Virus record (IMG/VR): IMGVR_UViG_3300047160_025247
DNA: 64,000 bases
Strand: one strand, 5' to 3'
Source: a virus
Shown here one piece after another: positions 18,472 to 55,899 of the stretch (the stretch's first letter is position 1; the number at the start of each line of letters is the position of its first letter). Position numbers and translations under genes: made by a program. The notes under the pieces were generated by a model. The model was not told the DNA's origin. It did not search any database and saw only the letters and a list, made by a program, of their open reading frames with translations.

Positions 18472-19515
18472 TCAGTTGCCGTTGAGGTAGCTGTCCATGT
18501 ACTTCTGGCCCTCGGTCAGGTAGCCGTCGACACCGGCCATCGCGTCGTCCGGGCCGGCGAGGTCGTCGTCGTCGCCGGTGCCCTGGTAGGCGGGCGAGTC
18601 GACGTAGCCGTCCATCTGGTCGGTCATGTCGCCGGTGCCCTGGTAGGCCGGGCTGTCGACGTAGCCGCCGGTGCCCTGGTAGGCCGGGCTGTCGACGTAG
18701 CCGCTGAGGCCCGCCATGCCGTTCACCGGGCCCGCCTTGGCGGTGGCCGGGAGCGCGGCGGCGGCCGGCGCGAGCATCGGCGCCGAGGCGGTCACGCGGT
18801 TGATCAGCGAGCCGATCATGCCGGGCGAGACGATCTCGACGAGCGAGGCGACCGCGCCGCCGACCATCACGGCCTTCTTGAGGTCCGCGTTGCGGATGAA
18901 CTTGCTGGCGACGAAGCCGAGGGTGAACGGCACCATGCCGCCGAGCACGCGCTTGACGGTCGGGCTGCCCATGAACGAGCCGGCGCCGACGCGGTTCAGT
19001 AGCGGGACGATGACGCTGGCGGTCACCATGCCGCCGAGCGCGTAGGTGCCGAGCGCGCCGCCGGCGGCGAACGCGATGTGCTTGATCTTCTTCGGACCCT
19101 TGAAGGTCGAGAGGATCTCGCGAGGGGCGCGCTTCACCGCGCTCATGTAGCCGGACAGAGCCTTGATCTTCATGGGATTCTTCCTGGAGTGGCGGCGGCG
19201 CGGGTTCGTCCACGCGACCTTGTGGTATGAACGGGAGCCGGAGCGCTTGAGCGAACCGCGGTACGCGACGCCGCCGAGGCGGCCGGACCATGCGATGCCC
19301 TTGACGTGGTGCCGCTTCCCGCGGTGCTTCACCGCCGAGTGCGAGCTGATGCGGTAGCGACCGCCGCCCTTGATCTTGTGCAGACGGCCGGTGCGGTGCT
19401 TCGCGCGCCACTGCGCCTGCGTGAGGCGCTTGCGCGACGGGAATCCGCGGCGCGGCAGGGGATTGCCGAGCAGGGCCAGATGCAGGCCGGGGTTGGACAT
19501 CAGCATGACGGTCAT
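18472..19515 (-). CDS. putative virion core/membrane polyprotein (NP-delimited basic segments, hydrophobic helices, C-terminal repeats)
   Basis: Four NP motifs, Arg/Lys-rich N-terminus, hydrophobic middle, three GYVDSPAYQGTG repeats. Start uncertain (19500-19527). Confidence 0.65.
   Translation of the reverse strand: MTVMLMSNPGLHLALLGNPLPRRGFPSRKRLTQAQWRAKHRTGRLHKIKGGGRYRISSHSAVKHRGKRHHVKGIAWSGRLGGVAYRGSLKRSGSRSYHKVAWTNPRRRHSRKNPMKIKALSGYMSAVKRAPREILSTFKGPKKIKHIAFAAGGALGTYALGGMVTASVIVPLLNRVGAGSFMGSPTVKRVLGGMVPFTLGFVASKFIRNADLKKAVMVGGAVASLVEIVSPGMIGSLINRVTASAPMLAPAAAALPATAKAGPVNGMAGLSGYVDSPAYQGTGGYVDSPAYQGTGDMTDQMDGYVDSPAYQGTGDDDDLAGPDDAMAGVDGYLTEGQKYMDSYLNGN
18574..18702 (-). repeat. three near-identical 36-bp coding repeats (GYVDSPAYQGTG)
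   Basis: GCCGGTGCCCTGGTAGGC(G/C)GG(C/G)(GA/CT)GTCGACGTAGCC occurs three times; two copies are directly tandem. Confidence 0.9.
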
Positions 19516-19647
19516 CGCGGCAACCAATCCCCGAGGCGGGGAGCGCGGACACGTATGCTGCAGATCGGGTGGCGCTCTTCAGAGCGCACGCAATCGCATG
19601 CTGATAGGGCTATCCTACGACCAGAAAATTCGGTTGCAAGGCCTGGC

Positions 19648-19665
19648 TGTCCGTTCTAGCGGACA
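19648..19665. promoter_or_regulatory. palindromic site TGTCCG-N6-CGGACA (perfect copy)
   Basis: TGTCCG-TTCTAG-CGGACA upstream of the capsid operon. Confidence 0.7.
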
Positions 19666-19760
19666 CGACCGTAACGGTTTCAGCAACGCTCGATCGTTTT
19701 GTAACTGAATTTTCAGGGACGTACGCGTTTCGAAACTGACTAAGGGCGGTTGATGGATTG

Positions 19761-19794
19761 TGTATTTACACGGTACATGTACATATACGCGTAT
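19761..19794. promoter_or_regulatory. cluster of short palindromes overlapping the start of the RHH-capsid fusion gene
   Basis: TGTATTTACA (19761-70), GTACATGTAC (19773-82), ATACGCGTAT (19785-94). Confidence 0.5.
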
Positions 19795-20512
19795 GACAAA
19801 AAAGGCGATGACCCTCCGGCTCGATGACGACCTGCTGAAGTGGTACCAGGGTCTCGGCGCCGGCTACCAATCCATCATTCAGCGCGTTCTGCGCGACCAC
19901 CAACGCAACACCGGAGGCGACATGTCCAAGTCACGAGCACCCAAGGGATCACCGTACGTCGAACCTGCTGGTCCCGATGCGGGCCCGGTGCTCGTCGAGG
20001 TCGACGATGTGGTGCAGGGAAAGATCCGCTTGGAGCAGATCGACTGCCCGCTCTACGACACGCAGGTGCAGACCAACCCCTACACGCTGCCGAAGAATCG
20101 GCGCGCCGATGCGCTCGAACGACCGCTGCCGATCCTCTTCTTCAACTCGGGGATGGCGGGGCGCTCCGACGCCTACACCAACCTCTACACCTGTGGGCAG
20201 CTCAGCTGGCCGAAGAAGTTCGACGCCTCCGGTATCGAGATGGTCATCAACGATCTGATCGAGCTGAAGGATCTCGTCCTGCGCTTCCACGTCGGCGAGG
20301 TGGTGCAGAAGACGATTCCGCTGCTCAACATGAAGATCGTGGAGGACCGCAAGCGGAAGACGATCACCTGCTCATCGCCGGTATGGAACCCGACGGTGCA
20401 CATCCCGTCGGTGCAGCACTTCAGGGTCGAGCTGAGCACCGGCGAGCAGTATCTTGGCGACACCGAGGTCCGCTGCACGCTGCTCGGCAAGCTCAGCCGC
20501 GAGATTGTGTAG
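19793..20512 (+). CDS. BrnA-like ribbon-helix-helix domain fused to a paralog of the putative major capsid protein
   Basis: N-terminal TLRLDDDLLKWYQGLGAGYQSIIQRVLR; C-terminal QGKIRLEQIDCPLYD...TNLYTCGQLSWPKKF...LLGKLSREIV aligns with 17680-18255. Internal GGAGG-ATG at 19922. Confidence 0.75.
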   Translation: MTKKAMTLRLDDDLLKWYQGLGAGYQSIIQRVLRDHQRNTGGDMSKSRAPKGSPYVEPAGPDAGPVLVEVDDVVQGKIRLEQIDCPLYDTQVQTNPYTLPKNRRADALERPLPILFFNSGMAGRSDAYTNLYTCGQLSWPKKFDASGIEMVINDLIELKDLVLRFHVGEVVQKTIPLLNMKIVEDRKRKTITCSSPVWNPTVHIPSVQHFRVELSTGEQYLGDTEVRCTLLGKLSREIV

Positions 20513-21202: not shown

Positions 21203-21203
21203 G

Positions 21204-21527: not shown

Positions 21528-21581
21528 GACCCCGTGCGCTCATCGTGCACAACGTTTGAATTACGTCCACGCGAGTAGCTA

Positions 21582-22082: not shown

Positions 22083-22089
22083 GGTCAGC

Positions 22090-22476: not shown

Positions 22477-23118
22477 TTACTTCCGCTTGCCCTTCTTGAG
22501 GTACAGGAAGAGGCCGATCGCTGCGGCGATGCCGCCGACGGCGAGCATGGTGCCGCTGATGCCCTTGTGCTGGCCCATGTTGGTCAGCATCTGCATCGCG
22601 GTCATGCGCTCGGTCGCGGCCTGCTGCGCCTGGGCGTTCGCCGCGGCAGCCTGGGCGTTCGCCGCCGCGATCTTCTGCTGCTGGGTGTTCGCGTAGATCT
22701 GCCCGGCCTGCTGCGCGAGCGCGACGCCGCTCTGGGTCAGCGCGTTCCAGTCGGTCGGCTGCGACGCCGGGGGCGGCGAGGGCGGGCCGTAGACCGGATC
22801 GGCGCCGAGGCCAGCCATGCCGGGGATGAACGCGCCGTGCTGGCGGTGCGCCGGCGCAACGGTCATCACGGCCTTGGCGCGGCCGGCGTGCACGATGCGC
22901 TCACGACCCTGCGGCTTGGTCACGATGCCGCGCGAGCGAGCGCCGCGGTGCGGGCCGGTGTCGCCCATGCCGCGGTTCGCCTGCGTGAACACCTCGACGT
23001 CCTGGGCGTCCTCGAACGGGTTGTCCGACTCCGCCTCGACCGAGATGGTGTTGCCGAACGGCTGCAGATCCACCTTCTGGATCTTGCGACGGTTGCTGGC
23101 GATTTCGTAGAGGGCCAT
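22477..23118 (-). CDS. membrane protein with C-terminal TM anchor and an MAGLG motif
   Basis: IPGMAGLGADP, Q/A-rich helix, ends IAAAIGLFLYLKKGKRK. Confidence 0.75.
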   Translation of the reverse strand: MALYEIASNRRKIQKVDLQPFGNTISVEAESDNPFEDAQDVEVFTQANRGMGDTGPHRGARSRGIVTKPQGRERIVHAGRAKAVMTVAPAHRQHGAFIPGMAGLGADPVYGPPSPPPASQPTDWNALTQSGVALAQQAGQIYANTQQQKIAAANAQAAAANAQAQQAATERMTAMQMLTNMGQHKGISGTMLAVGGIAAAIGLFLYLKKGKRK

Positions 23119-23122
23119 GGGC

Positions 23123-25939
23123 TTACTTTCGCTTCAGGAGGAGGTACGCGCCGAGACCGACGAGGCCGAGGGTCAGCGCGGAGGAGCCGACGGGGAAGGC
23201 GCCCATGCCGCTGAAGGCTGCGCCCGGCTGGTTCGCGTAGAGCGAGGCCTCGGAGGCATCGTCATCCGGGCCGGCATCGGCGGTGTTGGTCGCGTCGCCG
23301 CTCGGCGCACCGCCGCGGCGATGGCGATGGCGACGGCGGCGAGGCTGTGCCGCGGCGGCGGGGGCCGGCTGTGCGACGGCGACCACCGGCGCGCTCGCGC
23401 CGACGGAGTCCATCGCCTGGACTGGGCTCTTGAAGAGCGAGCCGAGCCACGACAGGAAGCCGGAATCGGCGCTCGGCGCCAGGGTCGGTGCGGCGCTCGC
23501 CGCCGCGGCAGCGACGGCGTCGGGCGTTGGAGCGCCGTTCTCGTCCGAGGTCGGTCCCATGTCCTCGGGACCGAAGGTGTCGACCGGCGTGGTGCTGTTC
23601 GAGGGGTCGCCGTAGTAGGACTGCTGCGCGACCGTCGGCGACTCGTCGGCCGGGTAGTCCTCCGACGACGGATCGAACGCGGTCTCGTCAGGGCTTGACG
23701 GCGAGTCGTACATCGTGTCCGGCGTCGGCGAGGATGCGCCTGGGTCACCGCCGCTCGGGTCGAAGTCCGAGCCGCTCGGGTCGCTGCTGTTGCCCGGGTC
23801 GAAGCTCGGATCGTAGGCCGACGGATCGCTGTTCGGGCCACCCGGCGTCGGGTACATGCCGCCACCGCCGCCGGAGGACGGATCCATGCTCGGATCGTAG
23901 TAGGACGGATCGTTCGACGACGGGCCGAGGTTGTTCTGGTTCTGGTTGGCGTAGGTCCACTGCCCGGTCGCCGGGTCGTAGACGTCGCCGGTCGCCGGGT
24001 CGGTCCACTTGCCGGTCGACGGGTCGTAGACGTAGCCGGTCGACGGGTCAGTGTACGGCTGGTTCGAGCCGGCGGTGGGCGCTGTGGGCTGGCTCGGCGC
24101 GCTCTGACCCTTCGGCTTGCGGAACATCGACTTGATGTTCGACGGCTTCACCGTGTTGAACAGCGAGCGGCCGGCGTTGTTCATCGAGCGCGCGATGTTC
24201 AGGTGCGACTGGACGATCTTCTGCGTCAGCTTCACCGGCGCGGTGGCGATCTTCGCCGGGATCGACGAGACGGCCTTGGTCACCTGCTGAAGCGGCTTGG
24301 TGATCGCCTTGGTCACCGAATGGAAGCTGAAGCGGCCGAGGTCACCGGCGAGGTCGTCGGAGTAGAGCACGCGGCCCATCTGGTCGCGCACCACAGCACC
24401 CTTGATCGGCGTCTTCAGCGGCGAGCGCGGGATCGCGCGGGCGCCGCGGTCGAACAGCTCCTTCTGCGCGGCCTGCACGGCCGGGACATCGTGGGCGACT
24501 TCGACGAGCGTGCCAACCTTGGTCGCCGCATGGCGCACCGGATCAAGTCCGGTCGGCAGCTTGGCGACGAGGTCCGGCGTGGCGAACGCGTGGTCGAGCG
24601 TCTTCAGGCGCGCGTAGGTGCGGCCGGCGGCGCGGCGGCGAACGTAGCTGCCGTTGGACGACTTCGCGACGAGCGCGCGAGCCTTGGCGGCGATGGCGGT
24701 CGCGAGCTGCGACACCGCGTTGGCGGCGCCAGCCTTCTCGTTGGCGACCGGATCCGCGCCGAGGCCGAAGATGGCGATCGAGCGGTTGACCTTGTCGGCG
24801 CGGTGGCGCGCGTGCTTCGCACGGTTCTCGGCGTGCACATGCGCGGCGACGGCCTTGTGCAGCGGGTCGGCCTTGCCGGCGACGCCCTGGAAGCCGGCGC
24901 AGGCGTTGACCTCGTGCTCCAGCGCCGACAGGTAGTCGGCGAGGCCGCCCAGCTCGCCCACCGTTGGGCCACCGGCGTTAGCCTTCGGCGCGAGGTTCTG
25001 CTTGCGGATGTTCACCGTGCGGATCGTCGGGCCGTGCACGCGCAGGTTCTTCACCGGCACGGTGTGCAGATAGCTCGTCATCACCTGCTCGGCGCGAGCG
25101 GTGAGCGGGCCATACGGGCGCAGCGAACCGCGAGGCGCGGTCTGCATCGGGTTCACGAGGTTGACGCTCTGGTCGAACATCGCGTCGAGATCTTCGCTCG
25201 GGCGCGTCACCTCGGCGGTGTTCATGATCCGACCGCGGCTGCCGGTGTCGGTGATGCGCGACTTCAGCGCCGGCACGACGGACGAGAGGTTGCGCACGTC
25301 GAGGTAGGACGGAGCGGAAGCGTAGGCGCCGAGGTTCATGTTGCCCAGTCCTGACAGGTCGGTGAAGAGCTTCTTCAGCTTGACTTTACTTGCCGGCGCT
25401 TCTTTTCCAAGCGGCCACTCGCGCATGATCGGATCCGCGGGGACCACTTCGCCGGCGTGCGCGTAGTTGCCCGGCGGCATGATGATGTGCAGGTAGACGT
25501 GGCTGTAGCGGCCGGGCTGGGTGCCGATGACGACTGGGTAGCTCTGGATCCCGATCGAACCGAGCAGCGCCATCTCCAGGATGGTCATGTCGTCGCAGTC
25601 GCCCGCCTGCGAGTTGAACGCCGTCTCCTCCGGGTAGCTGAGGGTCTCCTGGTTCAGCGTCGAGCCGTCGTCGGCGTCGCCGATCGGATCCTTCACGTAG
25701 CGGATGTGGTCGCGGACCCACTCGTGGATCGCCTTCGACATCCCGTAGTAGTCTTTGTTCGCGACGTTGGCCGCGTTCACGATGTTGATCGCGAGGGCGC
25801 GGATCTTCGCGCTGCGCGAGCCGTACTCGCCCTTCGCCATCTTCGACATCATCTGCACGGTGGCGTCGACGCCGGCGTTGCCCTCCGGCAGACGTCCGCG
25901 CTGCACATCGATATCGCCGTTGGCGAGATGCATGGTCAC
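23123..25939 (-). CDS. 938-aa polyprotein: N-terminal transglutaminase-like cysteine protease domain, G[LM]G-delimited modules, YDP repeats, C-terminal TM anchor
   Basis: WVRDHIRYVKDP, AGDCDD (Cys), YSHVY (His), PADP (Asp); ends LGLVGLGAYLLLKRK. Confidence 0.75.
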   Translation of the reverse strand: MTMHLANGDIDVQRGRLPEGNAGVDATVQMMSKMAKGEYGSRSAKIRALAINIVNAANVANKDYYGMSKAIHEWVRDHIRYVKDPIGDADDGSTLNQETLSYPEETAFNSQAGDCDDMTILEMALLGSIGIQSYPVVIGTQPGRYSHVYLHIIMPPGNYAHAGEVVPADPIMREWPLGKEAPASKVKLKKLFTDLSGLGNMNLGAYASAPSYLDVRNLSSVVPALKSRITDTGSRGRIMNTAEVTRPSEDLDAMFDQSVNLVNPMQTAPRGSLRPYGPLTARAEQVMTSYLHTVPVKNLRVHGPTIRTVNIRKQNLAPKANAGGPTVGELGGLADYLSALEHEVNACAGFQGVAGKADPLHKAVAAHVHAENRAKHARHRADKVNRSIAIFGLGADPVANEKAGAANAVSQLATAIAAKARALVAKSSNGSYVRRRAAGRTYARLKTLDHAFATPDLVAKLPTGLDPVRHAATKVGTLVEVAHDVPAVQAAQKELFDRGARAIPRSPLKTPIKGAVVRDQMGRVLYSDDLAGDLGRFSFHSVTKAITKPLQQVTKAVSSIPAKIATAPVKLTQKIVQSHLNIARSMNNAGRSLFNTVKPSNIKSMFRKPKGQSAPSQPTAPTAGSNQPYTDPSTGYVYDPSTGKWTDPATGDVYDPATGQWTYANQNQNNLGPSSNDPSYYDPSMDPSSGGGGGMYPTPGGPNSDPSAYDPSFDPGNSSDPSGSDFDPSGGDPGASSPTPDTMYDSPSSPDETAFDPSSEDYPADESPTVAQQSYYGDPSNSTTPVDTFGPEDMGPTSDENGAPTPDAVAAAAASAAPTLAPSADSGFLSWLGSLFKSPVQAMDSVGASAPVVAVAQPAPAAAAQPRRRRHRHRRGGAPSGDATNTADAGPDDDASEASLYANQPGAAFSGMGAFPVGSSALTLGLVGLGAYLLLKRK

Positions 25940-26033: not shown

Positions 26034-27167
26034 TTAGCGGTGATCCCGGAATGAGGTGTTCGTGGTCGGATGGACGCACCACACCCAGCCACGCTTGATC
26101 TTCGCGAAGCGTGGGTCGTACTTCACCGAGGTGCGGTTCAGCCAGAACTTTCCTTCCGGCGTGTAGACGACCTGCTCATACCCATGCTTCGGTAGCTTCC
26201 CGTTGCCGTACTGCTTCACGAGCGCGCCGGCTTCTTTATCGCTGACGTAGTAGTGTGAGTGACTGATGTGGCGAGACGAGTCGACGAGTTGCTTCGGGTT
26301 GATCTTCGTCTTCTTGATGGTCTTCGTGATCGTCGTGCTGGTGTGCCACTGCGCCTTCGAGCGCAGCTTCGCCTTCTTGCCGAGGCGACGCTTCGGGTTG
26401 ACCTCGGTGTCCGTCTCCAGCGAGATCTCGTCGTGGATGCGCGGCTTGTCGAGCAGCGCGATGCCTTCCTTCGTCCACGCCTTGAGGCTGTCCTCGTCCC
26501 CCGCGATGCCCGAACCGCTGCCAGGAAGCGCCGCAATGGAGAGGGAGATCAGATCCTTCCCCGCCTTCTCGTCCTTGTTGCGATAGCCGGGAGCCGGCCG
26601 GTAGCTGCCAGCACCGCCACGCGCCACGACCTTGCCCTTCCCGACCACCAGCTCCCAACTGCCATCATCGCGCCAGTAGGCGGTCAGCGGGCCGGCGCTG
26701 GTGTTGATGCGGTACATGTGCATGCCGGGGTTTGACTTCTTCCCGCCCGTCAGCAGCGACGCGAGGTGCTTGGTCACTTCCTTCTGGGACGTGAGCGAAG
26801 CCGTCGACTGCTGGATGAACGCCCAGCGGATCGCTTCGTATGCGATGTGGTCACCACTCTGTCGGGCCACCACCAGCGCGACCTTGAGCGCGTCGAGAGG
26901 GGAAGTTCCCGAGCGCAGCTCCCGCTTGAGCCGGCGCCCTGCAGTGCTCTGGTACCCGGTGGGGATGTCATGCAGCGCTTCGACAGCTGAGCGCGCCGGG
27001 TTCATCCGCGCCATACGCCGCGTCTCGGCGGTGCCGAGGTTGTACGGCCGCTTGATGCGAACCGTCGACGCGGTGCGCGGATCTCCGCTGCGGTGCCCCT
27101 TGCGGCGAGCCGCACCAAAGCCGAGCAGAGCAAGCGCGCCGCCGGCGCCGAGGATGTAGGGAAGCAT
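26034..27167 (-). CDS. NP-delimited basic polyprotein with N-terminal hydrophobic segment
   Basis: MLPYILGAGGALALLGFG, then modules separated by RMNP, KSNP, EVNP and KINP. Confidence 0.7.
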   Translation of the reverse strand: MLPYILGAGGALALLGFGAARRKGHRSGDPRTASTVRIKRPYNLGTAETRRMARMNPARSAVEALHDIPTGYQSTAGRRLKRELRSGTSPLDALKVALVVARQSGDHIAYEAIRWAFIQQSTASLTSQKEVTKHLASLLTGGKKSNPGMHMYRINTSAGPLTAYWRDDGSWELVVGKGKVVARGGAGSYRPAPGYRNKDEKAGKDLISLSIAALPGSGSGIAGDEDSLKAWTKEGIALLDKPRIHDEISLETDTEVNPKRRLGKKAKLRSKAQWHTSTTITKTIKKTKINPKQLVDSSRHISHSHYYVSDKEAGALVKQYGNGKLPKHGYEQVVYTPEGKFWLNRTSVKYDPRFAKIKRGWVWCVHPTTNTSFRDHR

Positions 27168-27178
27168 GGTAGCGTCCT

Positions 27179-27379
27179 TCAGCGTGTCTGTGAGCCGTGA
27201 GCGCGGAGGATGGCGGCCTTCAAGGCATCTGGCACCGGCTGTCCCGACTTCTGCAGCGCCGCTGCCTGGGTGAGCGCCGCGTCGCCAGCAGCCTGAACGC
27301 GTGCCGGATCGTTCGCCCGCTTCCAAAGGAAGTAGGCCACCACGGCGACGGCTCCGATGGCGAACGCGCTCTTCTTCAT
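27179..27379 (-). CDS. small membrane protein
   Basis: MKKSAFAIGAVAVVAYFLWKR. Confidence 0.7.
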   Translation of the reverse strand: MKKSAFAIGAVAVVAYFLWKRANDPARVQAAGDAALTQAAALQKSGQPVPDALKAAILRAHGSQTR

Positions 27380-27505: not shown

Positions 27506-27709
27506 TCAGCGGTGCGGCTGCTTGATCTTGCGGAGCTTGCCGCCGACCTTCAGCCAGACGCGGCCGTTCTTCCAGACCAGCTTGTACTTGCGGGCCAGCT
27601 TGGCGCCGCGACGGCGCTTAGCGGCCTTGGAAGCGGCGGTGGCGACCTTGCGCTTGAAGGTCACGCGGACCTTCTTGCGACCGTGATGGAACGTGACTCG
27701 AACAGCCAT
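27506..27709 (-). CDS. very basic 67-aa protein, putative DNA-condensing core protein
   Basis: Very Lys/Arg-rich with no acidic residues; AGGAG RBS. Confidence 0.65.
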   Translation of the reverse strand: MAVRVTFHHGRKKVRVTFKRKVATAASKAAKRRRGAKLARKYKLVWKNGRVWLKVGGKLRKIKQPHR

Positions 27710-27737: not shown

Positions 27738-28151
27738 TCAGCGACGCCGACGACGGCGCCGACGGGGGTTGGTGGAGGAGCGCAGCTCTTCCTCGTAGTT
27801 CTCGGCGATCTCGGCCGCGGCCTCGCGACGGTCGCTCTTGCTGAACGAGCCGTAGCTGCCGTTGCCCGAACCGCCGAACTCCCTGGTGTACTTCTGCGCG
27901 GCGGCGTCGGCGAGGAAGAGCCAGAGCTTCAGCGCCTTGGCGGCGTCGTACTTGCCGTTCTTGATCTTCTTGCGCAGGTTCACCATGATCGGCTGCGCAC
28001 GCTGCCGGTACAGATCGCCGTCGTTGACCGCGTAGAGCGCCAGCTCGCGAGCGGCCTCCGACGGGTTGCGCCGGCGACGACGCTTCCGGCGCCGCGGCGG
28101 GTTGCCGAGCAAGAGGGAGCCGAAGCCAGCTGCGAGGATGGTGCCGAGCAT
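27738..28151 (-). CDS. NP-delimited protein: hydrophobic N-terminus, poly-Arg, helical phage module, poly-Arg
   Basis: LLLGNPPRRRKRRRRRNP-SEAARELALYAVNDGDLYRQ...-STNPRRRRRRR. Confidence 0.75.
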   Translation of the reverse strand: MLGTILAAGFGSLLLGNPPRRRKRRRRRNPSEAARELALYAVNDGDLYRQRAQPIMVNLRKKIKNGKYDAAKALKLWLFLADAAAQKYTREFGGSGNGSYGSFSKSDRREAAAEIAENYEEELRSSTNPRRRRRRRR

Positions 28152-28161: not shown

Positions 28162-29832
28162 TCAGTGCACGCCGATGATGATGTTCAGCTTCGCCCGCGC
28201 GTTGCCGCAGAGGTGCACGTTGCCACCCTTGCCTGCCCGCTGCTTGTCCAACTCCTTCATCCGCTCGGCGACGTGCATCTCTTCGAGCAGCTTGGTGTCG
28301 TCCAGGCGCGCCGCGGCGATGACCTTCTCGTGCTGCGGGATCGCCGTGTTCGGGCAGCTGCCGCAGGCGATCGGACACGGGACTTCGCCGGGGCCCTTCA
28401 CCGCGGTGAGGAAGGCGTAGGTCGACGCCTGCACGATCGGTCCCGGTACCATCGTCGGCTCGCCGATCGCGTTGCGGACACGCTCCAGCGTGCGACTGCC
28501 CTTGGATTCGAGGTCGTGTACCGTCGCCACGTAGTCGTTGTAAGACGCGGCGAGGTCGGGGTTCGCGTGTGTGATCAGCGCGCCCAGGCGCGAGCGCAGC
28601 GCTTCTACGGCTGACGCCTTGCGTCCGGCGGACATGCTGCTGTTCGCCACCGCGGCGACGCGTTTGGTGTAGGCGGCCCACACCTTCTCACCGCGCACCT
28701 TGGTCATCGCCTTCCACAGCAGGCGCTCCATCGGGTCGATTGCGATGTACTCGCCGCGGGCGATCGGGAGCGCACGCATCTTGGCGAGCATCGCCGGGTC
28801 GCGGTAGTAGCGGCTGCCGCTGGAGATGTTGAGCACGTAGTTGGTCGGCCAGTAGCTGGCGCCGTTCTTCTCGTGCACCGAGAGGAACTCCGGCCACGAC
28901 TTCGAGTAGCCGTACACCGTGATGCCTTTGGCGCCGAGCGCGCGAACACCTTCCATCCACGTTTCGATCGCCGCGGCGCTGCGGAAATCGCCGTCGACGA
29001 ACAGGCGCATGATCTTCACGCCTTTCTTGGCGTTCAGCTTCAGCATGCGATCGACGACGGTGGCGACATGCAGCGTGGGGTCGACGCTCATGCCGAGCGT
29101 GAGCGTGTAGAGGCGGTAGCAGACGGTCGGGTTGCGCAGCGCCTTCAGCGAGTAGCAGAACGACGCGCAGCCGTTGATGTCGACGCCCTGCGACGCGTTG
29201 GCCGCACCGAGCGCACTGCCGCCGAGCTGCGCGAACTTCGCCGCGACGCCGCCGGCGCCGGGGCAGGTGACGACCGGCATCTCGGAGTAGGCGGCGAAGG
29301 GGAGCTTGACGTTGCCGTCCTCGGCGAGCGCGCAGCGCGCGACGTCGTCCCACAGCGGGATCGGGCGTCCCTTGTACTTCGTGCGCTCGCCCTTGGTCGC
29401 GGCGCTGCGCACCGGCGCCTGACCGGCGACGAGGCAGTCGACGTACTCGGCGAGCTTCTCGTAGACGTTCACGAAGGTGACGCCTGCGGTATCACCCTTG
29501 CTGCGCGAGCGCGCGAACGATGCGAGCTTGCGGCAGAGAATGGCCGCCGACGACCACTCGCGGTTCACGATCAGCCCGGCGACGGCGAGCGCAGCGTAGG
29601 TCGGGATCACGACCTTGGCGTCTGGCGTCTGGTAGGCGAGGATCGCTGCTTCCTGCTCGGTGGTCAGCGGCGGGTTCGTCCGCACGCGCTTCCTGAAGTC
29701 CGCCTTGGCGATCTTCCGCGCCCGCGCCGGGTTGTAGAACGGCGAGAACGGCGAGTAGAGGCGGCCGGATCCACCCATGGAGGCCGAGGCCTCGCTCGTG
29801 TTGCCGACGGGCTGCGCGAGGTCACTTGGCAT
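28162..29832 (-). CDS. GP88-like Cys-rich protein with an NP-containing basic N-terminal leader
   Basis: TCPGAG...CASFCYSLK, RLFVDGDF, YGYSKS, NYVLNISS, CPIACGSC...HLCG...IIIGVH. Confidence 0.65.
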   Translation of the reverse strand: MPSDLAQPVGNTSEASASMGGSGRLYSPFSPFYNPARARKIAKADFRKRVRTNPPLTTEQEAAILAYQTPDAKVVIPTYAALAVAGLIVNREWSSAAILCRKLASFARSRSKGDTAGVTFVNVYEKLAEYVDCLVAGQAPVRSAATKGERTKYKGRPIPLWDDVARCALAEDGNVKLPFAAYSEMPVVTCPGAGGVAAKFAQLGGSALGAANASQGVDINGCASFCYSLKALRNPTVCYRLYTLTLGMSVDPTLHVATVVDRMLKLNAKKGVKIMRLFVDGDFRSAAAIETWMEGVRALGAKGITVYGYSKSWPEFLSVHEKNGASYWPTNYVLNISSGSRYYRDPAMLAKMRALPIARGEYIAIDPMERLLWKAMTKVRGEKVWAAYTKRVAAVANSSMSAGRKASAVEALRSRLGALITHANPDLAASYNDYVATVHDLESKGSRTLERVRNAIGEPTMVPGPIVQASTYAFLTAVKGPGEVPCPIACGSCPNTAIPQHEKVIAAARLDDTKLLEEMHVAERMKELDKQRAGKGGNVHLCGNARAKLNIIIGVH

Positions 29833-29837: not shown

Positions 29838-30299
29838 TCAGAGCCCGTATTGCGCGGCGAGCGCCTTGTTCTGGTTGCGGATCATGTAGTACGCGAGACC
29901 GATCGCGCCGCCGGCGAGCAGCGTGCCGATCAGCGCCTTGTTGTCGCGCACCGACGCGGGCAGCTGGTTGAACTGCGAGGCGAGCTTGGCCTTGGTCGCC
30001 GGGTTGGTCGACATCGTCAGCACGGTGCCGGTGAGACCGACGCTCATGCCGATGATCGCGAGCGCCTTGCCGAGCGCATCCTGCTTCGCCTGCTGCGGCG
30101 AGAGCGTCATGCTGATGCCCGACTTCCGCTGCACCGCGGCGCGGATCGCCGGGTTGGCGGCGAGCACCATCAGGCCGCCGATGATGCCGACGGTGGCGCC
30201 GGCGAGGCTGAGCGTGCGACCGAGTGCTTCGCGCTTCGTGTCGTCCGCCGAGAGCTTCAGCTGCACCGGCTTGGTTATGTCGGGGACCAGGAAACCCAC
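29838..30299 (-). CDS. membrane protein with three hydrophobic segments (internal duplication)
   Basis: Two similar ALG(R/K).L...G.T.G....NPA units; GAGGT RBS before GTG. Confidence 0.7.
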   Translation of the reverse strand: MGFLVPDITKPVQLKLSADDTKREALGRTLSLAGATVGIIGGLMVLAANPAIRAAVQRKSGISMTLSPQQAKQDALGKALAIIGMSVGLTGTVLTMSTNPATKAKLASQFNQLPASVRDNKALIGTLLAGGAIGLAYYMIRNQNKALAAQYGL

Positions 30300-30306: not shown

Positions 30307-31002
30307 TCAGCGCATCTTCAGGAGCAGACCCACACCGATGACCGCTGCGGCCGTGATCATCAGCGTCTTCATCGCACTGGCACCGGCCGCTGCGGCCTGC
30401 GCGCCGGCGTTCGCCGGGATGTCGCCGTCGGCCAGCTCGGGCGCGGTGAGGTAGCCGACCGCGACCATGTCGCCGTCGTCCTCCTCGCCGAAGCCCGGCA
30501 TGAAGCCGGAATTGGGCGCCATCGGGCGCGAGCGCGCCGGCGTGCCCATGATGCGCGGCTTCTGCACCTTGCGCAGCTTCGGCGCGCGATGCGCGCGGGC
30601 GCGGGCGTGGCCGGCGAGATCGGTGTCGTCTCCCATGCCCGGCATGAAGGTGCCGGCGAGGTCACCGAACATCGACTCGATGTCGCCCATACCCGGCATG
30701 AACTTGCCGCCGTGGGACGGGAGGCGGTTCGTCACCGGCTGCGCGACCTTGCGATCGAGCGGGATCCGCATCGAGCGATCCATGTGCGGGGTGATGTTGC
30801 GCGCCTTCGGCGCCGGGACGCGAGCGCCGAGCGGGATGCTCAGCGACTGCGCGCCGAGGTCGCCCATGCCCGGCACCATCGGCCCGTGCGGCACCGGCAT
30901 CTGGTGCGACATCCGCGGTGTGATGTTCTTGTCCATCCGCGGCGTGATGCTGCGACTGTGGGTGGCGGCGCGCAGATGGGTCGCAAGGCGGTTGCGGTGC
31001 AT
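30307..31002 (-). CDS. repeat-containing protein with four PG[MF]G motifs and C-terminal TM anchor
   Basis: VPGMGD, MPGMGD x2, MPGFGE; (N/S)ITP(R/H)M x3; ends AAAVIGVGLLLKMR. Confidence 0.75.
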   Translation of the reverse strand: MHRNRLATHLRAATHSRSITPRMDKNITPRMSHQMPVPHGPMVPGMGDLGAQSLSIPLGARVPAPKARNITPHMDRSMRIPLDRKVAQPVTNRLPSHGGKFMPGMGDIESMFGDLAGTFMPGMGDDTDLAGHARARAHRAPKLRKVQKPRIMGTPARSRPMAPNSGFMPGFGEEDDGDMVAVGYLTAPELADGDIPANAGAQAAAAGASAMKTLMITAAAVIGVGLLLKMR

Positions 31003-32155: not shown

Positions 32156-32629
32156 TCACTTCCGCCGGAGCAGGAAAAATCCACCGAGGAGCACCGCGCC
32201 CAGGACGGCCGCGCCGATCATCAGCTCCTTCTTCGTGCCGCTGTTGTCGGCCGGCTTCTGCGCAGCCTGTACGGCCGCGTTCACCGCCTGCTGAGCTTCG
32301 GCCGCTTGCTGCTGTGCCGCCGCGGCCTGCTGCTGCGCTGCGGCGCTCGCCGCCTTCTGATCCTTCGAGTCGATCTTCGCCTGGCGCACGGCCATGAAGG
32401 TGCCCGTGAGCGCGGTCAAGGCGTTGATGGCGTTGGTGATCGTCGAGACAGTGCTCGCGGTGCTCGCCGCGGTCGCGGCTTCCTCACCGTAGCCGAGCGC
32501 ACCGAGGCTCGGGTTGTCGAGCGTGATGCTGCTGGCGAAGGGTCCGTTGGCGTGCCGAATGTAGACCGGGTCGCCACCGTGGAACGCGGTCGACCGGCTC
32601 GGGAAGGCAACTGTCCGCTGGTACGCCAT
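32156..32629 (-). CDS. membrane protein with Q/A-rich helix and C-terminal TM anchor
   Basis: Likely start MAYQRT; SLGALGYG; ends VLGAVLLGGFFLLRRK. Confidence 0.7.
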   Translation of the reverse strand: MAYQRTVAFPSRSTAFHGGDPVYIRHANGPFASSITLDNPSLGALGYGEEAATAASTASTVSTITNAINALTALTGTFMAVRQAKIDSKDQKAASAAAQQQAAAAQQQAAEAQQAVNAAVQAAQKPADNSGTKKELMIGAAVLGAVLLGGFFLLRRK

Positions 32630-32678
32630 GCCGGAGTATGGCGTGTCCGTTCTTTCGGGCAACGCCCGCTCGCAACCC

Positions 32679-44916: not shown

Positions 44917-45726
44917 ATGGGTGAGCTGATTCTCGGTAACTCGGCTCCGATCTTCACCGACACGCCGGTGGCCTCGGGGCTGGAGACGCTCATCAACGCG
45001 CAGCTCGCGCCGTTGCTGTCGCACTTCATCCTCGGCATCGGCTTCACCTCAGCCGATCAGGTCCGGAACCTCGGCAACGAGTTGCGCCTCACGGTCAGCT
45101 ACGAGACCGGCGGCACGACGATCACCAATCCGTACAAGATCAAGGGCTTCCAAGCCGTCACGATCAGCGACCTCGTGACGCAAGTCGCCGCGTGGATGGC
45201 TGCGAACCCGACCTACTTCTTCTCACCGCTCTTCCTGCAGCAGGTGACCGGTCCGCGCCGCAAGCAGCCGATCGTCGCGCTCGTCGTCTACAACGAGAGC
45301 CTCGCCGACGGTGAGGCGAACTGGCTCGCCGGCGGCAACCCGGGCGGCGCGACTCCGGGCGGCGCAGCCGGCGGCGATCTCAGCGGCACCTACCCGAACC
45401 CGAACGTTTTCGCCGGCCAGCTCAGCTCGACGCCCGGCGCGACGGCGACGGTTCTCGATTCGGTGTCGGCCGCGACCTACAAGGCCATGAAGTGGTCGAT
45501 CGAGGCGATCAAGGGTACCGCGACGTGGTACAGCGAGATCTCCGCGGCGCATGACGGCACGACCCCCGTCTGGACCGAGGGCAACGTCGAACTCGCGCCG
45601 GGCGGCGGCACGTTCGACTTCACGAACAGCGTCGACATCTCGGGCGGTCTACTCCGGCTCATCACGACGCCGTCGAGCACTGGCTGGACGTTCAGGGTGC
45701 GACAGCTGACCAGACTCGCCGCTTAA
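44917..45726 (+). CDS. putative spike/vertex structural protein
   Basis: AGGDLSGTYPNP fibre-type motif; N-terminal domain is paralogous to 52150-52551. Confidence 0.6.
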   Translation: MGELILGNSAPIFTDTPVASGLETLINAQLAPLLSHFILGIGFTSADQVRNLGNELRLTVSYETGGTTITNPYKIKGFQAVTISDLVTQVAAWMAANPTYFFSPLFLQQVTGPRRKQPIVALVVYNESLADGEANWLAGGNPGGATPGGAAGGDLSGTYPNPNVFAGQLSSTPGATATVLDSVSAATYKAMKWSIEAIKGTATWYSEISAAHDGTTPVWTEGNVELAPGGGTFDFTNSVDISGGLLRLITTPSSTGWTFRVRQLTRLAA

Positions 45727-50555: not shown

Positions 50556-51086
50556 ATGGCTTATCCCACCGCTTCTTTCCCGGCTGCGCTCGACACTGTC
50601 AACCAGATCGGTCCCGGCGACGCCAACTCACAGGTGCCGAACCCGCAGGGCGAGACGCATTCGGGTATCCACGCCCAGATCGCGGCGATTCTCGCAGCGA
50701 TCGAGACCGCGATCGGTATCACTGGGTCGACGGACCCGACCTCGATCCTCTACAAGCTGCGGGCAGCGACTGCGACGGTCGTCCCTCTGGCCGACGGAGC
50801 GCACATCGCGACGGACGCGTCCCAGGGAACCGTGTTCGACGTCACCATCGCCGGCGACCGCATCCTCGACAACCCAACCAACCCGAGCGATGGGCAGGTG
50901 TGCACCTGGCGCGTGAAGCAAGGGGCCGGCGGCAACCACCTCCTGACGTATGGCAGCGCGTTCAACTTCGGCGCCGCGGGAGCACCGACGCTATCAACGA
51001 CCGCCGCGAAGATCGACGAGATCACCGCACGCTACAACCTGGCAACCACCAAGTGGGACGTCGTGCTCGTCTCCCTCGGCTTCTGA
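50556..51086 (+). CDS. spike/fibre protein D sharing the anchor motif of fibre C
   Basis: FPAALD...PNPQGETHSGIHAQ...ETAIG...DPTSILYKL; C-terminal NPTNP.DGQ...V.Q...G domain typical of phage fibres. Confidence 0.65.
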   Translation: MAYPTASFPAALDTVNQIGPGDANSQVPNPQGETHSGIHAQIAAILAAIETAIGITGSTDPTSILYKLRAATATVVPLADGAHIATDASQGTVFDVTIAGDRILDNPTNPSDGQVCTWRVKQGAGGNHLLTYGSAFNFGAAGAPTLSTTAAKIDEITARYNLATTKWDVVLVSLGF

Positions 51087-52551: not shown

Positions 52552-52560
52552 GGGACCACC

Positions 52561-53562
52561 ATGGCCGTCAACATCGGCTCGCTCACTGGCGGGACACTCA
52601 ACACGATCGCGCTCGCCGCTCCGCTGGACCAGGCGACGCGCGACGTCGTCGCACAGCTGTTCCAGAAGATGGCGACGGCTATGCCGTGGATCACCTACGA
52701 TCCCGTCGGCATGTCGGCGCTCGCGATGGATCAGCAGAGCTATCCGTACCCGGTACAGACCATCGGTAACCCGCCGGTGTGGCTGAACACCGCCGATCGA
52801 CTGCAGGTGTGGCGCGACATCGCTGGGCAGTTCGTGCCGATCACGCAGCAGATCCTGACCGGGCAGATCCTGCAGGCACGCGTCGTCGCCATCGCGCTGA
52901 ACAACAACGTCACGTTCTGGAACAACGTCGCGCGCTACAGCGGCGTCGATGCGATCAACGCGGTGTGGGATGACCTGTGGCAGGCCATCGCGTCCTTCCG
53001 CGCCTCGCGCGACGCGACCAAGGTCGCCTTCGACCAGACCGCGCCGATCGTGGCGCAGTACGGCGCGAAGATCCCGGCGTCGCTCACGTCGCAGCGCGCC
53101 GCTCTGATCGCGCAGTTCAACGACCTCACCAACCGCGCCAGCACCACCCTCGCGCCGCTCGGCGCGCAGGCGCGCACTGCGGCAGGCCTCGGCATCGCGC
53201 CGTTGGTGATCGCCGGCATCGCCGCAGCCACGGTCGCGACCATCGCCGCCGCGGTCTGGGGCATCGCGCACGAGTTCTCGGCGGTGCAGATCAACGCGAA
53301 CAACAACGCACAGGCGATCCTACAGGCGCGCGACACCGCCGACCAGGCGGACTTCGAAGCGGGCAAGATCACCAACGAGCAGCTGACCCAGCGCCGCAAC
53401 GACAACGTCACCTCGGCCGCGAAGCTCGTCGACGCCGAAGGCGCCGGAGCCGTCGGCCGTGCCGTCGGCCGCGCCGGAACCGGCGTCGCCATCGGTGTCG
53501 GTGCGCTCGCGCTTGCGCTCATCGGTGGCTACTTTCTGCTCCGCAAGTCGCGTTCGTCCTGA
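52561..53562 (+). CDS. helical membrane protein with an AAGLG motif, internal hydrophobic helix and C-terminal TM anchor
   Basis: AAGLG-IAPLVIAGIAAATV...; ends LALIGGYFLLRKSRSS. Confidence 0.7.
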   Translation: MAVNIGSLTGGTLNTIALAAPLDQATRDVVAQLFQKMATAMPWITYDPVGMSALAMDQQSYPYPVQTIGNPPVWLNTADRLQVWRDIAGQFVPITQQILTGQILQARVVAIALNNNVTFWNNVARYSGVDAINAVWDDLWQAIASFRASRDATKVAFDQTAPIVAQYGAKIPASLTSQRAALIAQFNDLTNRASTTLAPLGAQARTAAGLGIAPLVIAGIAAATVATIAAAVWGIAHEFSAVQINANNNAQAILQARDTADQADFEAGKITNEQLTQRRNDNVTSAAKLVDAEGAGAVGRAVGRAGTGVAIGVGALALALIGGYFLLRKSRSS

Positions 53563-53574
53563 GAGCCCACGCGC

Positions 53575-54204
53575 ATGCAGCAGATGGGCTACCGCTTCAT
53601 CGAAGCGTGTGCGTTGCTTCCAATGCTGTTCGTGCCGCAGAACCGTCAAAACGCGGTGTTCTGCACAGGCGCGCAGGCTGAGACCTTCGCCGCGCACTGC
53701 CTCCGCTGGCGCGACGTCAACTGCGTCTACCTCCGCGAGAAGCCGATCCGTCCCCTCGCCGAGCGCGACGACCCGATCTTCAAGGACAAGACCAAGCAGA
53801 TCATCGTCGCAGCGATGCCGCCGGTCGGCTCCTGTGCCGCGGTGCTAACGTCGCCAGGTGAAGACCCCGACGCCTACCTCGGCGCGCTCGCGGCCGACGG
53901 CGTGGTCTGCGTCACTCGATACGATGTGACCGAGGTGCAGCCGATGCTCTGGCATATGCGCCGGCTCTTCCCGCGGTCGGTGATCCCGTGGCGGGAGTAC
54001 CTTCCCCAGGAGATCTACGGCGCCATCGCCAGCCCTCGCGGCGTTCCGACCCAACAGCGCAGTCCGCCCCAGAGCGCGAAACGCCTGAATAACCAGTACC
54101 TCAAGGCCATGTTCAACTTCGGCCAGGACGAGCTACCGATGGTATTCGGCGGCATGTCCGGTAAAAAGGACACAGCAGCCCCAGGGAAGACGAGCCATGC
54201 CTGA
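53575..54204 (+). CDS. degenerate spermidine-synthase-like (class I SAM fold) protein
   Basis: Order LLPMLFVP...AVF...CLRWRDV...LAADGVVCV...LFP...LNNQY..AMF follows SpeE, but the GGGDG motif is absent. Confidence 0.45.
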   Translation: MQQMGYRFIEACALLPMLFVPQNRQNAVFCTGAQAETFAAHCLRWRDVNCVYLREKPIRPLAERDDPIFKDKTKQIIVAAMPPVGSCAAVLTSPGEDPDAYLGALAADGVVCVTRYDVTEVQPMLWHMRRLFPRSVIPWREYLPQEIYGAIASPRGVPTQQRSPPQSAKRLNNQYLKAMFNFGQDELPMVFGGMSGKKDTAAPGKTSHA

Positions 54205-54769
54205 CCCAACCAGCACCGCCGTCCCAACCCTCCCACTTCCGCAGATCACCACGCCGAACAACCCGACGGCGCCAGCGGCGATCACCAGCTCGCTGCCGAT
54301 TCCGGCGACGATGATCAAGCAGCTGCTGAGCGGACAGCCGGCCTACACCGTCAACCGCGAGCGCGCTGCAGCCGTGCTCGACGCAGGCTTCAAGACCGCG
54401 GACACCTACAACCGCATCAAGCCCGCGCTCTTCGTCGGCGGTCTGATCGGCATGGCGGCGAGCGTCTACGCGATGTCGAAGCGCCACGGTCGCGGCGGCG
54501 AGGCCATCGCGACGTGGGCCACGGTGTTCCTCGCGAGCGCGGCAACTGCCTGGGTCACGCGCCCGATCGCGAACGCGGCGAAGCCGCCGGCGGGCTCCTC
54601 GGCCGCGGCGCAGAACTCCTTCGGCATGCTCGCGATCATCGACAAGCGCCGCGCCGAGCTGAAGGCCCAGGATCCCAACTTCGCCGACAAGGTCTTCGCC
54701 CGCTTCGACGCACTGCCTGTGGTCGCCGCGCAGCTCGACGCCTCGCCGCTCCTGAAGGCCGTGCTCTGA
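54197..54769 (+). CDS. two-TM membrane protein with Pro/Thr-rich N-terminus
   Basis: ALFVGGLIGMAASVYAM; IATWATVFLASAATAWV. Confidence 0.65.
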   Translation: MPDPTSTAVPTLPLPQITTPNNPTAPAAITSSLPIPATMIKQLLSGQPAYTVNRERAAAVLDAGFKTADTYNRIKPALFVGGLIGMAASVYAMSKRHGRGGEAIATWATVFLASAATAWVTRPIANAAKPPAGSSAAAQNSFGMLAIIDKRRAELKAQDPNFADKVFARFDALPVVAAQLDASPLLKAVL

Positions 54770-54772
54770 GTC

Positions 54773-55279
54773 ATGGTCTGCAATCCGCGCCACATTCTGC
54801 GCGGCTTCAATGGCATCATGCCGACGCACGAGCCGGAAAAGATCCTCGGGCTCACCGGCAAGCGGAAGATCTGGAAGTGCCGGGTCGTCGGCTACGACCT
54901 CTACACCGTCGACGGCAAGCACATCCGGTCGCAGTGGGCCGACTTCATTGGTGGCTCACATCATCTCGTGAACCAGTTCATCCCGAAGACGGAGATCTGG
55001 CTCGACGCAACGGTGCGCGGAGAGTGGCCCGGCTATCTCGCGTCGCACGAGCTGCTCGAAGCGCTGCTGATGCAGCTCCGAGGCTGGACCTACGATCGCG
55101 CCCACACCGCCGCGAACGGTCTGGAGCAAGAGCTGCGCGGCACAGCTGAGCACAACTCCCTCAGCGGTCCCAAGATCGCCGAGATCTGGGGCCACCATCT
55201 TCGCGAGCTGTTCCCGAAAGGCGACGACGTCCAAGTGGTCGCCGACACCGTCGCTCGCCAATTCTGGAGGTTCCTGTGA
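54773..55279 (+). CDS. hypothetical protein with an HE-x-x-E...H metal-site-like motif
   Basis: VDG..IR...DFIGGSH...FIP..EIWLD...SHELLEALLM...YDRAH. Confidence 0.55.
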   Translation: MVCNPRHILRGFNGIMPTHEPEKILGLTGKRKIWKCRVVGYDLYTVDGKHIRSQWADFIGGSHHLVNQFIPKTEIWLDATVRGEWPGYLASHELLEALLMQLRGWTYDRAHTAANGLEQELRGTAEHNSLSGPKIAEIWGHHLRELFPKGDDVQVVADTVARQFWRFL

Positions 55280-55899
55280 TCGGCGCACTCATCGGCGGCA
55301 TCGCGACTCTCGCGCTCGTGGGCAATCCGCCGCACCGGACGCAGCGTCGGCGGCGGCGCAACCCGCTTCGTCGCGGCCGTTCTCGCGCCGTGGTCAGCGG
55401 AAATATCCGCGAGCTGATGCACGCCGGCTACCCACAGAAGCAGGCGGTCGCTATCGCGTTGAAGAAGTCGCGCAACCCGCACCTCGGCAACAAGGGTGAC
55501 GAGTTCAAGAAGCACGCCGCACTGCGCGTGCTGCAGGACGCGATCGAGAAGCAGTACGGCAAGCGCCTCTCGCTCGATCAGGTGCAGAGCTTCCTCAACG
55601 ACGCCGAGCGCTTCATGCGCCGCGAGCACGCGAGGCGGACCTTCCGCGTCGTCGAGGGCCGCCGGCGTGCGAACCCGGTCTCGGTCGACACGCTAGCGAT
55701 GCCGGTGGCGAGCATGTTCTGGCGCAAGCACGGCTACCAGTCGCCCGGCCACGCCGAGGATCTCGCGATGATGGCGAAGCGCGGCTCGACCGCCCAGAAG
55801 CTCTGGGCGCGCGTCGCCCAGATCCTGAAGGGCTGGCTCTACGGCGGAAAGAAGCGCTCGAACCCCTGTTTTAGGGGCATGCGGAAACACAAGCACTGA
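55276..55899 (+). CDS. NP-delimited basic polyprotein with hydrophobic N-terminus
   Basis: LALVGNP, RRRNP, SRNP, RANP and RSNP separate small modules including SGNIRELMHAGYPQKQAVAIAL. Confidence 0.75.
   Translation: MIGALIGGIATLALVGNPPHRTQRRRRRNPLRRGRSRAVVSGNIRELMHAGYPQKQAVAIALKKSRNPHLGNKGDEFKKHAALRVLQDAIEKQYGKRLSLDQVQSFLNDAERFMRREHARRTFRVVEGRRRANPVSVDTLAMPVASMFWRKHGYQSPGHAEDLAMMAKRGSTAQKLWARVAQILKGWLYGGKKRSNPCFRGMRKHKH

Follow-up and report, generated by a model that had tools for sequence, protein, structure and literature searches.

Adenovirus core precursors pVII and pX (mu) are processed by the adenoviral cysteine protease at sites of the form (M/I/L)-x-G-x|G. Phages and conjugative elements encode polyvalent proteins, that is, multi-domain proteins predicted to be packaged and in some cases processed (Iyer, Burroughs, Anand, de Souza and Aravind, 2017; PMC5512222); examples of processed cargo are found in phage T4, whose internal proteins have a capsid-targeting sequence that gp21 cuts, and in phiKZ and SPN3US, among their inner-body or ejection proteins (PMC9026906, PMC7411985, PMC10052503). 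Cleavage between Asn and Pro is known for Asn peptide lyases, namely FlhB/YscU (MEROPS N6, the NPTH motif) and reovirus mu1, cut at Asn-42 (N7) (PMC3207474). Here, we analyze a 64,000-nt stretch of the IMG/VR virus record IMGVR_UViG_3300047160_025247 (hereinafter, the window), which belongs to an uncultured soil virus of about 100 kb and encodes five proteins punctuated by the dipeptide Asn-Pro (NP). These proteins and their homologs share a leader–Arg–NP format, which is near certain and constitutes a clade-wide scheme for small accessory proteins of this virus. The closest described systems are polyvalent proteins in kind, maturation-protease substrates and adenovirus core precursors in the proposed mechanism, and FlhB/YscU and reovirus mu1 in chemistry.

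A format protein starts with a hydrophobic leader of about 15 residues rich in Gly, Ala, and Leu, followed by NP, an Arg/Lys tract of about ten residues, a second NP, one to seven small and unrelated modules, a last NP, and often an Arg tail; the junctions, or seams, conform to [RK]-[RST]-N-P. The Arg tracts between NPs are mostly 7–13 residues long, with the mode at 10. The minimal example is protein P0003, encoded at 27738–28151 (-), which reads MLGTILAAGFGSLLLG-NP-PRRRKRRRRR-NP-(99-aa module)-NP-RRRRRRRR-stop, and the architecture seen in relatives matches it (Met-hydrophobic-[GS]-NP-basic-NP-modules-NP-(Arg tail)-stop), with one to four such genes per locus. In one relative we observe four paralogs with near-identical leaders (M-[IF]-x-PVLAGLGAL...), and a chain of another relative comprises nine NPs. 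The initial annotation of the window, made from the sequence alone, had described three of the proteins as beginning with a hydrophobic helix ending in L-[LV]-G-N-P and followed by Arg-rich sequence. The hydrophobic stretch, its ending, and the basic residues are present in all three, but the word “helix” does not suit the gene at 18472, as its leader (MLMSNPGLHLALLGNP) is interrupted by NP and is below membrane-span length. The leaders in general, with only about 15 hydrophobic residues, are short for membrane tethering.

The five open reading frames (ORFs) carry the numbers of NPs initially reported, that is, four in 18472–19527 (-), four in 26034–27326 (-), three in 27738–28151 (-), and five in 55276–55899 (+), and 28162–29832 (-) has two more NPs further on in addition to the two claimed for its leader. 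The proposed enrichment check yields 20 NPs in the five ORFs compared to 2.9 expected; for the window's 85 further genes, the counts match expectation (27 vs. 24.3 and 12 vs. 10.9 expected). By residue shuffling, p is at most 0.001 in four ORFs and 0.025 in the fifth, the ORF at 28162, which encodes a GP88-like protein. The pattern [RK]-x(0,1)-NP is found 11 times in the 1,681 residues of the five ORFs and five times in the other 17,131 residues, being about 22 times denser in the former. Two further NP-rich ORFs (44917–45726 and 50556–51086) were excluded from the format, with non-basic contexts of their NPs. In the set of 24 format proteins, collected from the window and nine relatives, there are 118 NPs against 14.9 expected (7.9-fold), and 42% of all Asn residues precede Pro. 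The enrichment is specific to Asn: SP, TP, and GP occur at 0.83, 0.70, and 0.55 of expectation, respectively. Position –2 is occupied by R or K in 70 out of 118 sites, and position –1 by R, S, or T in 85; the residue following NP is variable, with R, G, K, L, and V dominating. Approximately 40% of the sites continue as NP-[RK][RK], basic residues being equally frequent upstream and downstream. A twofold excess of Asp-Pro is in good part due to another short motif, D-P-R-T-A-x-T-x-R-[LM], which recurs in the polyproteins, often as two tandem copies (26034–27167 (-); L020:3877–4008; L027:1666–1794; P0069 and P0071).

Could such an excess be a compositional artifact, or could it reflect a signal in DNA, such as a recombination linker or a regulatory word? 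The latter might be suggested by the overuse of the AAT codon before Pro codons (31% in format proteins compared to 14% elsewhere), but almost the same value (29%) is observed in non-format proteins, indicating a general codon-pair bias. A DNA-level motif is ruled out by this general bias and by the use of every synonymous pair (AAC/AAT with CCG/CCC/CCA/CCT); as all synonymous Asn-Pro combinations occur, selection acts on the protein. Chance, in turn, is excluded by the shuffle tests, and NP is conserved across homologs down to about 34% identity. With the shuffling, the conservation, the Asn-specificity, and the codon usage pointing the same way, this explanation has practically no probability left and is effectively refuted.

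The conservation of seams is well seen in the family of the first protein, P0001, encoded at 18472–19515 (-), its start having been corrected to 19515 in agreement with the database protein P0006. The leader reads M..MLMS-NP-GLHLALLG-NP, and the Asn codons of the four NPs start at 19494, 19464, 19206, and 19179. The leader is followed by a basic module of about 85 aa ending in WT-NP, a short RRRHSRK tract, and the last NP; the C-terminal part consists of a multi-span membrane domain and three GYVDSPAYQGTG repeats. Both NPs of the leader are present in 32 out of 33 aligned homologs, down to about 37% identity, the remaining one having no leader, and S-N-P-G-L and G-N-P rank with the best-conserved columns of the protein. 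Wherever the basic module is present, it ends in T-N-P; inter-NP modules come and go, and in nearly all homologs one or more NPs are retained before the membrane domain. The Asn of an orthologous NP is almost never replaced by Ser, Thr, or Asp. The C-termini of this family (18472–18800 (-) in the window) are formed by two to four tandem G-Y-V-D-[SA]-P-A-Y-Q-G-[TV]-G repeats and an acidic tail, mostly with terminal ...S-Y-L-N.

These substitution data bear on the possibility that the seams are structural punctuation, with Asn-Pro capping or stopping helices and thus insulating the modules from the Arg tracts, and the intact chain tethering DNA to the membrane as beads on a string. It draws on the model of protein P0005 (55276–55899 (+)), which has the structure leader-NP-PHRTQRRRRR-NP-(phrog_2423 module)-NP-(module)-NP-(module)-NP-basic tail, the Asn codons starting at 55324, 55360, 55474, 55672, and 55861. 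In a single-sequence AlphaFold2 model (pLDDT 60), NPs 29–30, 67–68, and 133–134 are placed 0–3 residues before helices H31, H68, and H137. The same NPs lie in or beside low-pLDDT linkers; the model fits accessible linkers and helix capping as well. Moreover, in ordinary proteins of the window, NP is in many cases followed by helix-like sequence (e.g., NPSEAARE, NPQLLADAQ), and NP is found at helix ends inside membrane proteins as well. However, a generic cap would employ Ser, Thr, and Asp too, and neither the composition of format proteins, where NP alone is increased and SP and TP fall short of expectation, nor the alignment of P0001 homologs shows this; a generic helix N-cap as the sole explanation is ruled out, since SP, TP, and GP are not enriched. 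Capping alone is also inadequate because NP stands on both sides of the Arg tracts and ahead of the C-terminal Arg tails, unstructured segments in which capping a helix serves no purpose; such tails follow NP in ten proteins, and in an eleventh with a less Arg-rich tail. An internal control is provided by six tail-anchor-type proteins of the window, with a hydrophobic stretch and a Lys/Arg tail (22477–23118, 23123–25939, 30307–31002, and 32156–32779 (-); 52561–53562 and 55954–56304 (+)): their hydrophobic-to-basic junctions have no NP, compared to 15 out of 18 N-terminal leaders with NP at this junction, according to manual reading of the leader list. We regard structural punctuation as unlikely, though deserving serious attention. 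The tail-anchored set is the same in relatives and suggests a membrane-rich particle or assembly site. One more membrane protein, encoded at 29838–30299 (-), has two internal units of the form Gly-rich hydrophobic helix-[AT]-NP-basic, with the junction as in leaders.

The seams coincide with module boundaries. In the all-against-all BLAST comparison of uncut polyproteins from different viruses, 36% of the ends of homology segments are within two residues of an NP or a terminus, compared to 11% for random placement, and the median distance is four residues compared to 15 for randomly placed segments, bearing in mind that the high-scoring segment pairs are not independent. Locus comparisons demonstrate that modules are shuffled among relatives and between proteins. 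For example, two near-identical viruses (L005 and L008, 98% identical over the 129 C-terminal residues that they share) differ by replacement of internal inter-NP modules. The phrog_2423 module, located in P0005 in the window at 55 kb (55363–55476 (+)), in relatives is found in another polyprotein, always between NPs: in the virus L026, whose P0001 ortholog is 79% identical, it is in the ortholog of P0002, and at least four further viruses (five loci) have it in the polyprotein cluster upstream of a transglutaminase-fold gene, again flanked by NPs in all cases. P0002 itself (26034–27167 (-); Asn codons of the four seams start at 27002, 26732, 26399, and 26300) comprises a hydrophobic leader (MLPYILGAGGALALLG), a basic stretch with the DPRTA motif, and modules separated by NPs. 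Comparison with the L026 ortholog, which has two additional inter-NP modules, one of them being phrog_2423, indicates that its likely start is the internal Met at 27167 (MLPYILGAGG...). Between P0002 and P0003, a 67-aa hyperbasic protein with no NP is encoded (27506–27709 (-), 37% K+R), and its counterparts in L024 and L028 are fused to the C-terminus of the P0003 ortholog. Hence, the dedicated format uniting unrelated small modules at NPs, as initially suggested, is borne out by the shuffling and by the coincidence of boundaries in relatives.

The modules were also expected to exist as free genes, and this is observed for the phrog_2423 and phrog_34889 modules, for the P0003 core, and for one further module, found as a stand-alone ORF in MEP301, a cultured Methylophilales phage. 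Both mini-proteins given as examples in the initial annotation turned out to be mobile: SGNIRELMHAGYPQKQAVAIAL matches phrog_2423 (E 2e-12), and ARELALYAVNDGDLYRQ has 2,868 cluster matches, some of them free-standing at about 110 aa. The P0003 core module (27768–28064 (-)) is a widespread mobile domain: at E ≤ 1e-3 it matches 2,868 clusters, whose proteins are 107–1,069 aa long, and it is free-standing, terminal, or internal in them. An NP marks its start in 35 out of 94 proteins and its end in 51 out of 117. In the best 150 representatives we observe 289 NPs at 68 expected, and the format in 54; the latter include lineages that are rich in lysine and apparently low in GC, their tags being of the kind MTKRKC-NP. 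In known families the modules are poorly represented. Outside GP88 (Pfam) and phrog_2423 (PHROG), the five ORFs have no Pfam or PHROG families; nine out of ten modules tested have no family in either database, the tenth matching phrog_34889, and no Pfam families were found for these ten modules together with ten long homologs.

The GP88-like Cys-rich protein (PF17338; 28162–29832 (-)) has an N-terminal extension of about 54 aa (29671–29832) ending in RVRT-NP. The second NP of the extension is conserved in relatives (as RR-NP or RT-NP), the first one being NQ in L005. In an unrelated low-GC viral contig (L004:9018–10318), a 254-aa GP88 homolog with no such extension is immediately followed by a free 114-aa homolog of the P0003 core. 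Given this bare pair, GP88 and the P0003 core constitute an older conserved gene pair, which has been “formatted” in the window.

The history of a seam can be read from the P0001 gene. Its last seam (R-[RK]-N-P-M) is encoded by a Shine-Dalgarno-like sequence, AGGAAG-AATCCC-ATG (19171–19185 (-)), with the start codon directly following the last NP; in the window, the segment is AGGAAG-AAT-CCC-ATG, in a relative AGGAGA-AAC-CCC-ATG, the start being ATG or GTG and Arg encoded by the rare AGG/AGA codons. The embedded ribosome-binding site and start are retained in seven orthologs (L012, L020, L023, L024, and L027–L029), and many gene calls in databases begin at this start. Judging from the sequence, the gene probably makes two products, a long one with the leader and the basic domain, and a short membrane-domain product starting from MKIKALSGY. 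The embedded ribosome-binding site with ATG therefore indicates that seams can be former gene boundaries, resulting from gene fusion. As the general meaning of seams it is ruled out, for among 183 NP sites it is essentially restricted to the P0001 family. The chains originate from small genes, each with a basic-NP tag, that are fused in frame and reshuffled, as demonstrated for the shuffling and for one junction.

If so, the seams might be address tags left after fusion and never cut, basic-NP being a short linear motif for docking that either a partner in packaging or assembly, or DNA, recognizes; in the latter version, the Asx-Pro turn would be analogous to the SPKK minor-groove motif, with multiple copies adding avidity. 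The fossil ribosome-binding site with ATG is consistent with this, as it shows that seams can be fusion scars, and so are free-standing or N-terminal copies of the P0003 module in distant clades, which begin with M-x-R-R-NP or end with NP-RRRR. The strict conservation of both residues suits recognition, and NP-R-R-R, seen at about 40% of sites, resembles [ST]-P-[KR]-[KR]. However, the equal frequency of basic residues on both sides of NP yields no single oriented motif, the absence of NP from permanent membrane anchors is left unexplained, and no binding partner has been identified. Docking is conceivable, yet on balance improbable to the same degree as punctuation.

A candidate enzyme acting on the seams is encoded next to the polyproteins. 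The 938-aa tail-anchored protein at 23123–25939 (-) has an N-terminal transglutaminase-fold (papain-like) domain (Transglut_core, E 3e-5), and its gene is found immediately downstream of the polyprotein genes in all relatives whose locus extends that far; the L021 and L025 stretches contained no such polyprotein. The Cys-His-Asp motifs DC...SHVY...ADP are conserved in eight out of ten sequences. In L025 (2750–5497) and L029 (2994–6455), a long insertion starts at the putative catalytic Cys; from its start, CL..D/E..TR, and a weak match to Pfam Intein_splicing on L029, it is read as an intein, which would be typical of an essential active site. Among the window genes (64 out of about 106 kb covered), no peptidase families besides Transglut_core were found, and the enzyme is the only protease-like candidate for the processing. 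Two side observations concern this neighborhood. First, the motif F-[MI]-P-G-[MF]-[GA] (30307–31002 and 22477–23118 (-); L005 13732–17058), present four times in one 231-aa tail-anchored protein, fits the adenoviral protease pattern (M/I/L)-x-G-x-G, and this motif may be what the neighboring cysteine enzyme actually acts on. Second, a distant relative (L025:17348–17869 (-)) encodes a 173-aa Peptidase_C39 protein, of the double-glycine leader peptidase type, none being recognized in the window.

The same neighborhood suggests covalent attachment, where the carboxamide of the seam Asn would be an acyl donor for an isopeptide bond to Lys, formed by the adjacent enzyme and fixing the cargo to the particle, on the model of the HK97 Lys-Asn chainmail. 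The Pro would shield the Asn from spontaneous deamidation, and indeed Asn-Pro cannot deamidate by the usual backbone route; the strict requirement for Asn and the conserved transglutaminase-fold enzyme beside the polyprotein genes agree with this scheme. Yet the residue on which transglutaminases act is Gln rather than Asn, no acceptor is known, and the interchangeable modules bounded by sites are not explained, which makes covalent attachment very improbable.

Processing at the seams is the reading we favor, given the Asn-specific enrichment, the conserved NPs, the location of seams at module boundaries, the tail anchors with no NP, and the adjacent enzyme triad; we hold it tentatively, at somewhat less than an even chance. 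The Arg tracts would bind the genome, the leader would bind the membrane or an assembly partner, and the chains would be loaded into the particle as cargo. The seams would then be cut, yielding free modules and protamine-like Arg peptides, either by the downstream transglutaminase-fold cysteine enzyme or via Asn cyclization at N|P. Thus, we infer cleavage at N|P, packaging into the virion, DNA binding by the Arg tracts, and membrane tethering. Two other cleavage mechanisms were considered and rejected: 2A-like ribosome skipping (NPG|P), as neither NPGP nor the D-x-E-x context is present, and sites of Pro-Pro endopeptidases (NP|P) as a general explanation, as Pro is found at +1 in just seven out of 118 sites.

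Several points weigh against processing. Most endopeptidases cut Xaa-Pro bonds poorly. The known Asn lyases depend on a folded catalytic context around their sites, and here the seams lie in variable, apparently disordered basic linkers; none of them has the NPTH motif, with no T-H after NP. The transglutaminase-fold enzyme could serve another job, the F-M-P-G-[MF]-G motif of neighboring proteins being a rival target. NP is not depleted in the other proteins of the virus, and hence NP alone is insufficient to trigger cleavage. The N-terminal tags in distant homologs can be very short (MVRR-NP), and removal of five residues has no obvious purpose. Finally, in family searches over the window neither terminase, nor FtsK-type ATPase, nor portal was recognized.

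Comparison with the described systems supports neither identity nor complete novelty of design. Like polyvalent proteins (PMC5512222), the format proteins string in one polypeptide unrelated domains that also occur alone, and both are extensively shuffled between relatives. Genes for polyvalent proteins lie with the late or structural genes; for their products, packaging and delivery with DNA have been predicted, as has, in some cases, proteolytic processing; the genes studied here are located among putative structural and membrane genes. The modules differ in being tiny (40–200 aa), with none matching Pfam or the published repertoire (MPTase, ART, ParB-like, helicase, methylase, and others). 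Moreover, the format proteins have the hydrophobic leader, the Arg tracts, and strict Asn-Pro seams, and no zincin-like peptidase domain; the passages on linkers, cleavage, and processing in PMC5512222 give no seam motif.

The substrates of the T4, phiKZ, and SPN3US proteases (T4 gp21 and phiKZ gp175 type) likewise have a short low-information motif in accessible segments at boundaries, corresponding here to [RK]-[RST]-N-P (118 sites), and the removal of N-terminal targeting peptides from cargo packaged with DNA resembles the scheme proposed above. Their sites, however, end in Glu (L/I-x-E; S/A/G-x-E) rather than being Asn-Pro, and they are cut by a prohead serine protease, whereas none is recognized in the window, and this virus is not demonstrably tailed. 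For FlhB/YscU and mu1, the scissile dipeptide would be identical to the seam, and the mu1 cut frees an N-terminal membrane-active peptide of a virion protein, similar to the hydrophobic leader ending in G-N|P. However, the known Asn lyases cut once in a precise fold, as opposed to many sites per chain in disordered basic linkers with no conserved fold. No homology to the C-terminal FlhB/YscU domain (four-strand sheet and four helices) was found in the five ORFs, GP88 being the only Pfam match and the seams lying in low-confidence linkers. Adenovirus cores are similar in that Arg-rich DNA-condensing peptides are released from precursors in a dsDNA virus; their sites are not NP and the protease is of a different clan. 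The Pro-punctuated Arg tracts also resemble protamines, and may condense DNA. A further precedent for NP beside a membrane helix is SREBP, whose cleavage by site-2 protease reportedly requires NP. Hence the format proteins are not members of any compared family, as each fails on at least one defining feature. Our literature search found no paper describing basic-NP seams or Asn-Pro cleavage in phage virions.

The window has a G+C content of 64% and covers 64 out of about 106 kb, the database contig bearing its own P0001 protein being 106 kb long. Relatives range from 97 to 123 kb; a record among them in IMG/VR, 96.8 kb long, has a completeness rating of 100%. Coding strands form blocks (plus, 1–17.5 kb; minus, 17.6–38.7 kb; plus, 38.7–57.6 kb; minus, 58.5–64 kb), and recognizable genes are those of replication, nucleotide metabolism, glycosyltransferases, a ParB-like protein, and an SNF2 helicase. 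The sequence of the window is present in soil metagenomes, and orthologs of the GP88-like protein, the P0001 protein, and several neighbors are found on contigs from IMG/VR, NCBI metagenome assemblies, JGI, ENA, and Logan. No cultured relative was found among GenBank phages (megablast and tblastn), and a scan of genome contigs with P0006 as the query yielded no matches. No capsid family was recognized among the window proteins, the complete relative matches neither Terminase_6N nor FtsK, and sequence searches in PDB gave only chance-level matches. A conserved 191-aa protein ending in LREIQ is encoded adjacent to the 18472 gene (17680–18255 (-)), with paralogs at 19760–20512 and 38725–41857 (+). 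It is modeled, at moderate confidence, as a beta-sandwich, as are the paralogs, and the top structural matches are viral jelly-roll capsid proteins, these matches being in the noise band (Foldseek E about 2e-3, TM 0.3; VIA Z 7–7.8). Given these weak matches, a tailless, membrane-containing particle is plausible.

A wider proposal takes basic Asn-Pro seams for a processing signal that is general but so far undescribed, and is shared by many cargo polyproteins, a large class bound to DNA, of uncultured viruses. A hydrophobic leader and Arg tags would target the chains, Asn cyclization or a dedicated transglutaminase-fold protease would cut them at N|P, and the cuts would release a membrane-active leader peptide, protamine-like Arg decapeptides condensing the genome, and free accessory modules entering the host with DNA. 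We consider it doubtful, but worth stating. If the seams are cut, they would represent a new and very simple processing code of two residues and a basic neighbor, and a bacterial-virus counterpart to the core maturation of adenoviruses and poxviruses and to the cargo processing of T4 and phiKZ. The seam rule would then split hundreds of “hypothetical” viral polyproteins into working units. Another use suggested by the format is that of a compact tag with which foreign proteins could be loaded into particles. Even if the seams are not cut, it marks proteins that probably travel with the genome, and helps to find candidate host-takeover and anti-defense modules in viral dark matter.

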